Of a DNA stretch of 64,000 bases, positions 60,190 through 60,972 are shown piece by piece. Source of the stretch: Escherichia phage vb_EcoM_bov9_1. The notes beneath the pieces are model-generated. The model ran no database searches. It saw nothing but the letters and a program-made list of their open reading frames with translations, and was not told the DNA's origin. Numbering within the stretch: the stretch's first letter is position 1; each line of letters starts with the position of its first letter. Both the position numbers and the translations under genes were made by a program. The stretch lies in sequence record MT884006.2. One strand, given 5' to 3'.

Positions 60190-60972
60190 ATGGCAGTAGT
60201 AGGAATTCCTGGTTGGATTGGGACTTCAGCCGTCGCTGAAACAGGCCAACGTTGGATGACAGCAGCTTCTAGAGAATTGCGTCTTGGTAACCCGTCTTGG
60301 ATGTCCCAATTCGCGGGCCGCTCAAGAGAAATTATTCACACGCTTGGAGCAGACCATAACTTCAATGGTCAATGGTTCCGAGATAGATGTTTTGAGGCAG
60401 GTAGTGCACCTATAGTGTTTAATATCACTGGAGATTTAGTATCATATTCTAGAGACGTTCCTTTATTCTTCATGTACGGAGATACACCGAATGAATATGT
60501 TCAATTGAATATACACGGCGTAACGATGTATGGTCGCGGCGGGAATGGTTGGGCTGCTGGAGCGATTGGAGCGTCTGACGGTGGTGTATGTATCCAAAAT
60601 GATATAGGTGGACGCCTACGAATTAATAATGGGGGAGCTATTGCTGGAGGCGGCGGCGGTGGCGGTGGATATTCGCAAGCCAATAACTGGGCAGGAAAAT
60701 ATGTATGTGGAGGCGGCGGTGGTCGTCCATTTGGTTTAGGCGGAAATAATGGTGCTCGATGGCCTGGTGGAAATGCTAGCTTAACAGCACCTGGTGCTGG
60801 TGGTAATACTGGCCAATATTGGGCTGGCGGTGGAGGTGAAGTTGGTCAACCAGGTCAATATGCTAATCCAGGTAATGGTTATTCAACACCTCCGACAAAT
60901 CCTGGTGCTGCTGTAGCAGGATCGGCTCCAACGTGGCAAAACGTTGGAGCCGTATACGGTTCAAGAGTATAA
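60190..60972 (+). CDS. 38: Receptor-recognising tail fibre adhesin gp38, T2/T6-type (260 aa)
   Basis: Conserved N-terminal domain followed by poly-Gly runs (GGGGGGGG, GGGGG) separating variable segments. Confidence 0.85.

Follow-up and report, generated by a model that had tools for sequence, protein, structure and literature searches.

Gene 38 of Escherichia phage vb_EcoM_bov9_1 was analyzed within a stretch of 64,000 nucleotides of sequence record MT884006.2, hereafter called the window, to which all coordinates refer; features are on the plus strand unless otherwise stated. The genes of this region follow the order 34-35-36-37-38-t. In the list of open reading frames, gene 38 (60190–60972) encodes a protein of 260 amino acids (gp38), with an ATG start and the stop codon included in these coordinates, and it is preceded by a Shine-Dalgarno sequence, GGAGG, at 60180–60184. 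Gene 37 (56908–60159), identified through Pfam, encodes the distal subunit of the long tail fiber, a protein of 1083 amino acids that is the partner of gp38. Directly 3′ of gene 38 lies the holin gene t (61005–61661; Pfam Phage_holin_T, 5.9e-117). Further upstream in the fiber gene set, gp35 gave a Pfam match to ILEI that was barely over the threshold. No hits were obtained when the entire window, 64,000 nucleotides in length, was scanned with Rfam and for tRNAs.

Between genes 37 and 38, a hairpin with the sequence GGGCC-UUCG-GGCCC (60164–60179; -12.3 kcal/mol) adjoins the Shine-Dalgarno sequence of gene 38. Its thermodynamic z-score is unremarkable (-1.15), and the support for this element comes instead from conservation: the C(UUCG)G hairpin is found in PP01, KMB42, T2, T4, and IMG/VR loci, with compensatory changes in the stem.

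The phages bov9_1 and bov10K1 belong to the genus Tequatrovirus and come from Hungarian cattle farms, where they were isolated on the enterohemorrhagic strain O157:H7 Sakai, which also served for propagation (PMC8407724). The two differ by one base and have the same gp38, with no differences in the protein. Gene 38 is 100% identical in DNA to its counterpart in Escherichia phage vb_EcoM_bov10K1 (MT884007.2, CDS QOC56966.1), and positions 54190–64000 of the window (9,811 bases) show zero mismatches with MT884007.2. The exact protein is present in GenBank under two accessions, QOC56966.1 (bov10K1) and QNR52723.1 (bov9_1, MT884006), where it is named "tail fibers protein"; in UniRef, the name is receptor-recognizing protein gp38.

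Family Assignment of gp38

A first-pass annotation of this DNA had described gp38 as a glycine-rich receptor adhesin of the T2/T6 type rather than a chaperone of the T4 type, and the family profiles bear this out. The protein matches Pfam GP38 (PF05268) over residues 47–260 (2.6e-72, 243.6 bits, with a cut-off of 25) and Pfam Gp38_N (PF21721) over residues 1–42 (1.7e-20, 73.2 bits, with the same cut-off of 25). Similarly, it matches PHROG 2056, which is annotated as "tail fiber protein; host specificity," at 3.7e-110. Neither gp38 nor gp37 has a model in NCBIfam. The same assignment is supported by a fold like that of PP01 gp38, by a gp37 of the S74 type, and by the lack of relationship with T4 gp38.

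The T4 protein is a tail-fiber assembly chaperone, and the position of its gene between genes 37 and t, together with the gene name, is what it shares with the protein analyzed here; were this likeness to reflect function, gp38 would act outside the virion and the tip of gp37 would bind the receptor. This is extremely improbable. No similarity to T4 gp38 (from NC_000866) was detected, the best BLASTP E-value being 19. T4 gp38 is assigned to PHROG 105 ("tail fiber assembly") and has no Pfam GP38 match, whereas gp38 from bov9_1 was sought in the PHROG 105 profile comparison without a match. The partner proteins differ as well: T4 gp37 carries Collar and Phage_fiber repeat domains in its C-terminal region, whereas gp37 of bov9_1 lacks them and has at its end a Peptidase_S74 intramolecular chaperone (residues 978–1033, with an SDIRCK motif at 978). 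The T4-type gp38 chaperones of temperate phages, and not the T2-type gp38 family, are the subject of PMC9659904.

The composition of the protein raises another question, that of whether such a glycine-rich, low-complexity frame is a non-functional repeat artefact, since a poly-Pro open reading frame on the minus strand (60501–60683) mirrors the Gly codons of gene 38. We give this no credence. [quoted passage not shown] Both the chaperone and the artefact readings are excluded by the BLASTP, PHROG, and pN/pS evidence.

Within the T2-type family, alignment with gp38 of T2, T6, M1, and Ac3 revealed a common layout of Gly motifs and variable segments, as well as a conserved C-terminal end. Overall identity to these four proteins is 50–67%, and all five receptor loops differ. 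The classical adhesins recognize diverse receptors: FadL and OmpF for T2, Tsx for T6, and OmpA for M1. The first-pass annotation had proposed a comparison with T2, T6, K3, and Ox2; for the classical adhesins that were aligned (T2, T6, and M1, with K3 and Ox2 left out), what is shared is the scaffold alone, and these proteins, like Ac3 gp38, are uninformative about the receptor of gp38 in bov9_1.

Fold and Glycine Blocks

In phmmer searches against the PDB, gp38 matched 9V85, an sfGFP fusion of the receptor-binding domain of PP01 gp38 (1.5e-137), and chain D of 6F45, which is gp38 of phage S16 in the gp37–gp38 tip complex (4.4e-51). An AlphaFold2 model made from a 53-sequence alignment has a mean pLDDT of 86.8, with low confidence confined to residues 1–45 (pLDDT 41–66 in the N-terminal module). 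When this model was compared with the PDB by Foldseek, the matches were 9v85_C (rmsd 0.7 Å over 216 columns, TM 0.96, E 2.8e-36) and 6f45_D (E 1.7e-21), and no other match with E < 1 was returned.

The S16 protein is described as consisting of an attachment domain, a short linker, a β-helix domain, and a three-layer polyglycine-II (PGII) sandwich built of Gly motifs, in which the variable segments form distal loops (PMC12032242, PMC12892980); its N-terminal segment is assigned a role in attachment to gp37 in the first of these sources (PMC12032242). S16 gp38, whose receptor is the OmpC of Salmonella, has this three-domain architecture and the PGII sandwich in common with gp38 of bov9_1, but the two are only ~44% identical and their loops differ. 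The S16 complex also serves as the model for a single gp38 capping the gp37 trimer.

Two parts can be delimited in gp38 accordingly to these comparisons. The first is the N-terminal gp37-attachment module (residues 1 to ~47; 60190–60330), which is of the type found in AugustSocin, KMB39, BF15, and Bp7, as judged from the Gp38_N match and amino acid identity. The low pLDDT of this part of the model is consistent with a segment that becomes ordered only on the gp37 trimer, although it is no proof of such behavior. The second is the receptor-binding domain (60331–60969), delimited by identity to PP01, phmmer, and the AlphaFold2/Foldseek results. Its predicted fold is a β-helix domain followed by a PGII sandwich with distal loops, a prediction that is backed by ~96% identity to the crystallized domain of PP01.

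Glycine makes up 23% of gp38 overall and 33% of residues 115–260. One block, G153–G160 (8 Gly, GGGGGGGG; 60646–60669), supplies the PGII sandwich with a core strand, and its columns are invariant in the 53-sequence alignment. A second block, G174–G178 (GGGGG; 60709–60723), is followed by an invariant RPFG motif, and the translation contains further glycine-rich motifs at residues 184–188 (GGNNG) and 213–217 (GGGGE). In the same alignment, the Gly blocks and RPFG are invariant among the gp38 homologs, and five entropy peaks (nucleotides 60544–60909) are interspersed with the blocks, with high-entropy segments at residues 119–130, 161–173, 186–195, 203–214, and 220–240. These variable segments overlie the receptor loops A–E of the PP01 structure. 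The organization initially read from the DNA, that of a 260-residue protein whose conserved N-terminal part precedes variable segments set apart by Gly blocks, is thus found again in both the open reading frame and the alignment. The interval first proposed for the variable segments, about 60580–60900, holds in essence, the one difference being a start of the first variable loop ~30 nucleotides earlier, at 60550.

Receptor Loops Compared With Those of PP01

PP01 gp38, to which that of AR1 is nearly identical, binds OmpC of E. coli O157 (PMC12892980, mBio 2026; PDB 9V85). The receptor-binding domain of bov9_1 gp38 is 95.8–96.7% identical to it in amino acid sequence. The loop definitions used here are those of PMC12892980, and the residue numbers of PP01 have to be increased by 2 up to loop D and by 1 beyond it to obtain those of bov9_1.

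The two proteins have the same sequence in loops A, B, and C. Loop A (W121–I126, WAAGAI; 60550–60567) corresponds to W119–I124 of PP01, loop B is located at Q163–V172 (60676–60705), and loop C (N186–W191, NNGARW; 60745–60762) corresponds to N184–W189. Loop D (N206–W211, NTGQYW; 60805–60822) is one residue shorter than the NTGTGYY of PP01: Q209 stands in place of T207–G208 and W211 in place of Y210, while the essential tyrosine is kept (Y210, equivalent to Y209 of PP01). Loop E (N226–S232, NPGNGYS; 60865–60885) reads NPGAGYS in PP01, so that its tip carries N229 in place of A228, and Y231 is the equivalent of PP01 Y230.

From residue 47 onward, the two proteins show seven differences (given with the bov9_1 residue first): I48V, A200S, Q209 for T207, the deletion of G208, W211Y, N229A, and V255I. 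Four of the seven are in loops D and E, and the other three are conservative. Y161, Q163, K170, Y171, Y210, and Y231 are conserved; among these, Y161, K170, and Y171 are the equivalents of the functional residues Y159, K168, and Y169 of PP01, whereas the hydrophobic A228 is represented by the polar N229. Since loops D and E differ, gp38 of bov9_1 is a close allele within the PP01/AR1 subgroup and not the same adhesin. At the DNA level, 36% of synonymous sites (pS 0.357) and 1.9% of non-synonymous sites (pN 0.019) differ from PP01 in this domain, which indicates that the sequences diverged long ago while purifying selection remained strong, as would be expected with a common receptor.

Other phages carry domains of this kind. 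In tblastn searches, the receptor-binding domain was ≥99% identical in 15 phage records and 95–99% identical in 30 more, which are of the PP01/AR1 type. The closest relatives, with no more than one or two differences in 214 residues (99.1–99.5% identity), are Ec_O157kw, CAM-21, vB_EcoM-G157lw, G4507, vB-Eco-KMB42, KMB39, Sf23, and vB_EcoM_112. Most of them were isolated on O157; Sf23, which has at most one difference in the 214-residue domain, is a Shigella phage. In the alignment, KMB42 gp38 is identical to that of bov9_1 from residue 49 and has the same loop D/E allele. Among the viral contigs of IMG/VR, no close relative of the receptor-binding domain was present, the best full-length match being 71% identical.

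Within this clade, four residues occur at the tip of loop E (A, N, S, or H), and this polymorphism is linked to the type of loop D: TGTGYY accompanies A or S, and TGQYW accompanies N or H. Natural N, H, or S at this position occur in phages of O157 or Shigella and in a prophage. A literature search for receptor determination in phages with the N229 allele (CAM-21, G157lw, Sf23, and KMB42) found none.

These comparisons bear on the suggestion, made from the DNA at first, that the variable segments are the likeliest place for a novel specificity. That suggestion fares poorly. Of the five loops, three are the same as in PP01 gp38 and two are nearly so, and the receptor of that protein is the OmpC of O157; the segments are thus close to being those of an already characterized adhesin with a known receptor. 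In addition, the domain differs by no more than one or two residues in 214 from those of several sequenced phages, and from residue 49 the protein is identical to that of KMB42. Gene 38 is already known: its sequence is published, its family is known, its fold has been solved, and its likely receptor is known.

Mosaic Structure of Gene 38

The two parts of gp38 have different affinities. An identity profile covering genes 36 to t, together with a three-way DNA alignment, placed a recombination junction in a conserved stretch around codons 47–52 (60331–60350), which coincides with the boundary between Gp38_N and GP38. Upstream of the junction the sequence resembles AugustSocin and KMB39, and downstream it is identical to KMB42. 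More precisely, the gene 37 portion at 59243–60142 has 97–100% DNA identity to AugustSocin (Bas38), and the N-terminal part of gene 38 (to 60290) is ~90% identical to AugustSocin and 97–98% identical to KMB39. The 46 N-terminal residues encoded there are identical to those of both phages. Over the interval 59243–60290, identity to PP01 and KMB42 is just 51–89%. From ~60335 to 61661, a block comprising the receptor-binding domain and the holin gene t, the situation is reversed, with 100% identity to KMB42 and 52–78% to AugustSocin; holin t therefore shares its KMB42-like block with the receptor-binding domain.

The encoded proteins give the same picture. The last 200 residues of gp37 ahead of its chaperone are 99% identical to those of AugustSocin and 58–60% identical to those of PP01 and KMB42. 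When protein identity to the window is taken in the order gp37 tip, gp37 chaperone, gp38 N-terminus, and gp38 receptor-binding domain, the values are 99, 98, 100, and 64% for AugustSocin; 87, 99, 100, and 99.5% for KMB39; 60, 59, 53, and 99.5% for KMB42; and 58, 60, 57, and 96.7% for PP01 (for which the receptor-binding domain gave 95.8% in a separate comparison). KMB39 therefore also has the N-terminal module of bov9_1 in common, whereas the aligned KMB42 protein has an N-terminal module and a gp37 tip of the PP01 type. Similarly, the attachment module of PP01 is 57% identical to that of bov9_1 and is matched to a different gp37 tip (58%). Except for KMB39, the other close relatives probably carry the PP01-type module and gp37 tip, to judge from query coverage that starts at nucleotides 139–145.

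By sequence comparison, gene 38 is a natural chimera, in which a receptor-binding cassette of the PP01 clade is joined to an attachment module that matches the phage's own gp37 tip of the AugustSocin/JS98 type. The identities of the gp37 tip, the gp38 N-terminus, and the cassette show that the attachment module is inherited together with the gp37 tip, and that the cassette moves independently. The same cassette occurs on at least three gp37/gp38 N-terminal backgrounds, as well as in a temperate prophage. A modular design of this kind is known from the work of Trojet et al. (2011; PMC3157838), and PP01 gp38 was functional on T2 gp37 only once its N-terminal 113 residues had been swapped (PMC12892980). 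The mosaic agrees with this finding and illustrates well a rule already established rather than a new one.

Outside the T4-like phages, a gp38 that is 93% identical was observed beside an S74-bearing tail fiber in a non-T4 prophage on the chromosome of the pig ETEC strain ETEC4085.

Proposed Mechanism and Receptor

Taken together, the explanation that best accounts for these observations, and that we hold to be very probable as a whole, is that gp38 is a T2-type adhesin that caps the gp37 trimer as a monomer and binds the OmpC of O157. By analogy with S16 and T2, from which the stoichiometry of gp38 and the processing of gp37 are taken, gp37 would trimerize and its C-terminal S74 chaperone would then be cut off, probably by auto-cleavage near Ser978, as the SDIRCK motif at 978 suggests. 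A single gp38 monomer would dock on the tip of the trimer through its N-terminal ~45 residues, as in S16, and the remainder of the protein would fold into the β-helix domain and the polyglycine-II sandwich made of the Gly blocks. Loops A–E would protrude from the distal face of the sandwich and bind reversibly to an outer-membrane protein. If the model for PP01 applies, loop E would enter the cleft between loops 5 and 7 of OmpC, with a possible contribution of LPS through loop B. The location of gp38 at the fiber tip in the virion and its role in adsorption are expected from homology: in the T4 derivative with T2 genes 37 and 38, PP01 gp38 was shown to be located at the fiber tip and to be required for adsorption (PMC12892980), and for S16 the evidence is structural.

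In PP01, cross-links connect loop D (G208) with loop 5 of OmpC and loop E (Y230) with loop 7, and a GVIN insertion in OmpC loop 7 is the determinant of specificity (PMC12892980). PP01 gp38 depends on Y159, Y209, and the conformation of loop E, as well as on the backbone of Y230 and a hydrophobic residue at position 228, whereas Q161, K168, and Y169 are modulators, of which K168 and Y169 may contact LPS (PMC12892980). In addition, gp38 phylogeny is presented in PMC12032242 as a predictor of the receptor. By its loops, bov9_1 gp38 belongs with the adhesins of the PP01/AR1 clade, which, together with the host, makes the O157-type OmpC porin its most probable receptor. This is supported by the conservation of loops A–C and of the equivalents of PP01 Y159, K168, Y169, Y209, and Y230, by the strong purifying selection on the domain, and by the fold and the O157 host serotype that the two phages have in common; in addition, every O157 strain tested was lysed by bov9_1 (PMC8967787), and its closest relatives in this domain come mostly from O157. 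Against it stands the fact that loops D and E, which differ from PP01, are precisely those that cross-link to OmpC. Therefore, OmpC may be bound in a manner that differs in detail from that of PP01, and it is conceivable that other OmpC alleles are recognized. Since Sf23, which differs by no more than one residue in the 214-residue domain, is a Shigella phage, the specificity is not strictly for O157.

A stronger version of this idea is that the protein belongs to the same adhesin family, but that its Q209/W211/N229 allele confers a specificity measurably unlike that of PP01, directed to other OmpC alleles (for example those of non-O157 STEC or Shigella) or partially independent of OmpC. We consider this unlikely. 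It draws on the concentration of the differences from PP01 in loops D and E and on mutagenesis: at the loop E tip of PP01, Val and Leu in place of A228 are tolerated, but Asp or a deletion abolishes infection (PMC12892980), and T207I, at the position that Q209 occupies here, arose convergently as an adaptive change in each of the four lines of PP01 that had been evolved on O157:H7 (PMC6027323). The natural polymorphism of the loop E tip, linked to the type of loop D, and the presence of the Shigella phage Sf23 among the nearest relatives point in the same direction. So does the host range, since bov9_1 also lysed some of the "big six" STEC, with lower efficiency than O157 (PMC8967787). According to Morita (2002; cited in PMC6027323), PP01 host-range mutants altered in gp38 can also infect a strain that is null for ompC. 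However, loops A–C and all of the individually required PP01 residues apart from the loop E tip are conserved, purifying selection is strong across the receptor-binding domain, and the isolation host was O157:H7, as for PP01 and AR1. Moreover, most single substitutions at neighboring positions of loop E are tolerated in PP01 (PMC12892980). Binding to O157-type OmpC remains the preferred reading.

Significance of the Loop Allele and of the Cassette

The shorter loop D, with its Gln and Trp, and the Asn at the tip of loop E allow a tentative proposal, to which we attach a low probability: OmpC would be recognized differently than by PP01, with an extended set of alleles or a relaxed dependence on this porin. 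If this were true, the rule of a hydrophobic loop E tip, which was drawn from the mutagenesis of PP01, would not be general. Loops D and E are the experimentally defined contacts with OmpC, and a polar Asn at the tip of loop E conflicts with that hydrophobic requirement; therefore, this allele is a cheap natural test of the PP01–OmpC docking model.

More generally, gene 38 of bov9_1 is a clean natural case of re-targeting in T-even phages, in which the receptor-binding cassette is swapped as a unit and the attachment module stays with the gp37 tip. This rule of cassette exchange is the same design rule that is used in host-range engineering. The occurrence of the cassette on several backgrounds and in a prophage points to a naturally portable anti-O157 module.

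Mosaicism and signals around gene 37

The tail-fibre gene 37 (window 56908-60159), which precedes the adhesin gene 38, is itself a patchwork. In successive 150-nt bins, its identity to phages PP01, KMB39, KMB42, and AugustSocin alternates between about 95% and about 70%, and its final roughly 900 nt are 99-100% AugustSocin-like. Over one segment (57443-58040), the gene has diverged from three of these four phages (69-77% identity to AugustSocin, KMB42, and KMB39), versus 83-95% identity to PP01.

A GGGCC-UUCG-GGCCC tetraloop hairpin (60164-60179; folding energy -12.3 kcal/mol) lies in the gap that separates the stop codon of gene 37 (60159) from the Shine-Dalgarno sequence of gene 38 (60180-60184). 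It looks like the C(UUCG)G intercistronic hairpin that is classical in T4. Its shuffle z-score (-1.15) is weak taken alone. At the equivalent position, PP01 and KMB42 have GGGGC-UUCG-GCCCC, which represents a compensatory C-G to G-C swap relative to the window, and T2 has GAGGGC-UUCG-GCCCUC. A hairpin is also present between genes 37 and 38 of T4, as well as at the equivalent position in IMG/VR T4-like loci, where the loop sequences differ.

On the minus strand of gene 38 (60501-60683), an ORF of 60 aa that includes a PPPPPPPP run was rejected as a gene, as it is merely the reverse complement of the gene 38 glycine codons. Upstream, the hinge connector gp35 (gene 35, 55065-56180) matches Pfam PF15711 (ILEI, interleukin-like EMT inducer/FAM3 fold) over aa 58-127 (31.1 bits, cut-off 27; E 3.5e-07), a surprising family name to meet in the hinge protein of a phage tail fibre.

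gp38 adhesins in Escherichia coli prophages

An adhesin with 93% identity to the window gp38 is encoded in the chromosome of E. coli ETEC4085 (NZ_CP122634.1, 2751571-2752353; 12001-12783 of the retrieved piece, L020). Identity reaches 96.7% in its receptor-binding domain, and its loop E tip, a receptor-loop residue, is His. The adjoining gene (L020 8545-11964) encodes a tail fibre of 1139 aa. Towards its C-terminus, this protein is similar to the T-even gp37 tip and S74 intramolecular chaperone, with 34% identity across about 430 aligned aa. The two genes lie within a non-T4 prophage that encodes the terminase gpA, portal, capsid, tail tube, and a tail tip protein. In addition, a more distant gp38 copy was found in a second E. 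coli chromosome (NZ_LS992166.1). Evidently, temperate phages acquire the T-even adhesin cassette.

Two other proteins were retrieved with the window gp38. P0051, a 303-aa protein of an E. coli record, has Peptidase_S74, Gp38_N, and GP38 together in a single ORF, and is either a fusion of the gp37 C-terminus with gp38 or a mis-call. P0106, a 'receptor-recognizing protein' with 48% identity, carries the label MULTISPECIES Enterobacteriaceae and was seen on 75 contigs, which suggests that enterobacterial prophages commonly carry T2-type adhesins.
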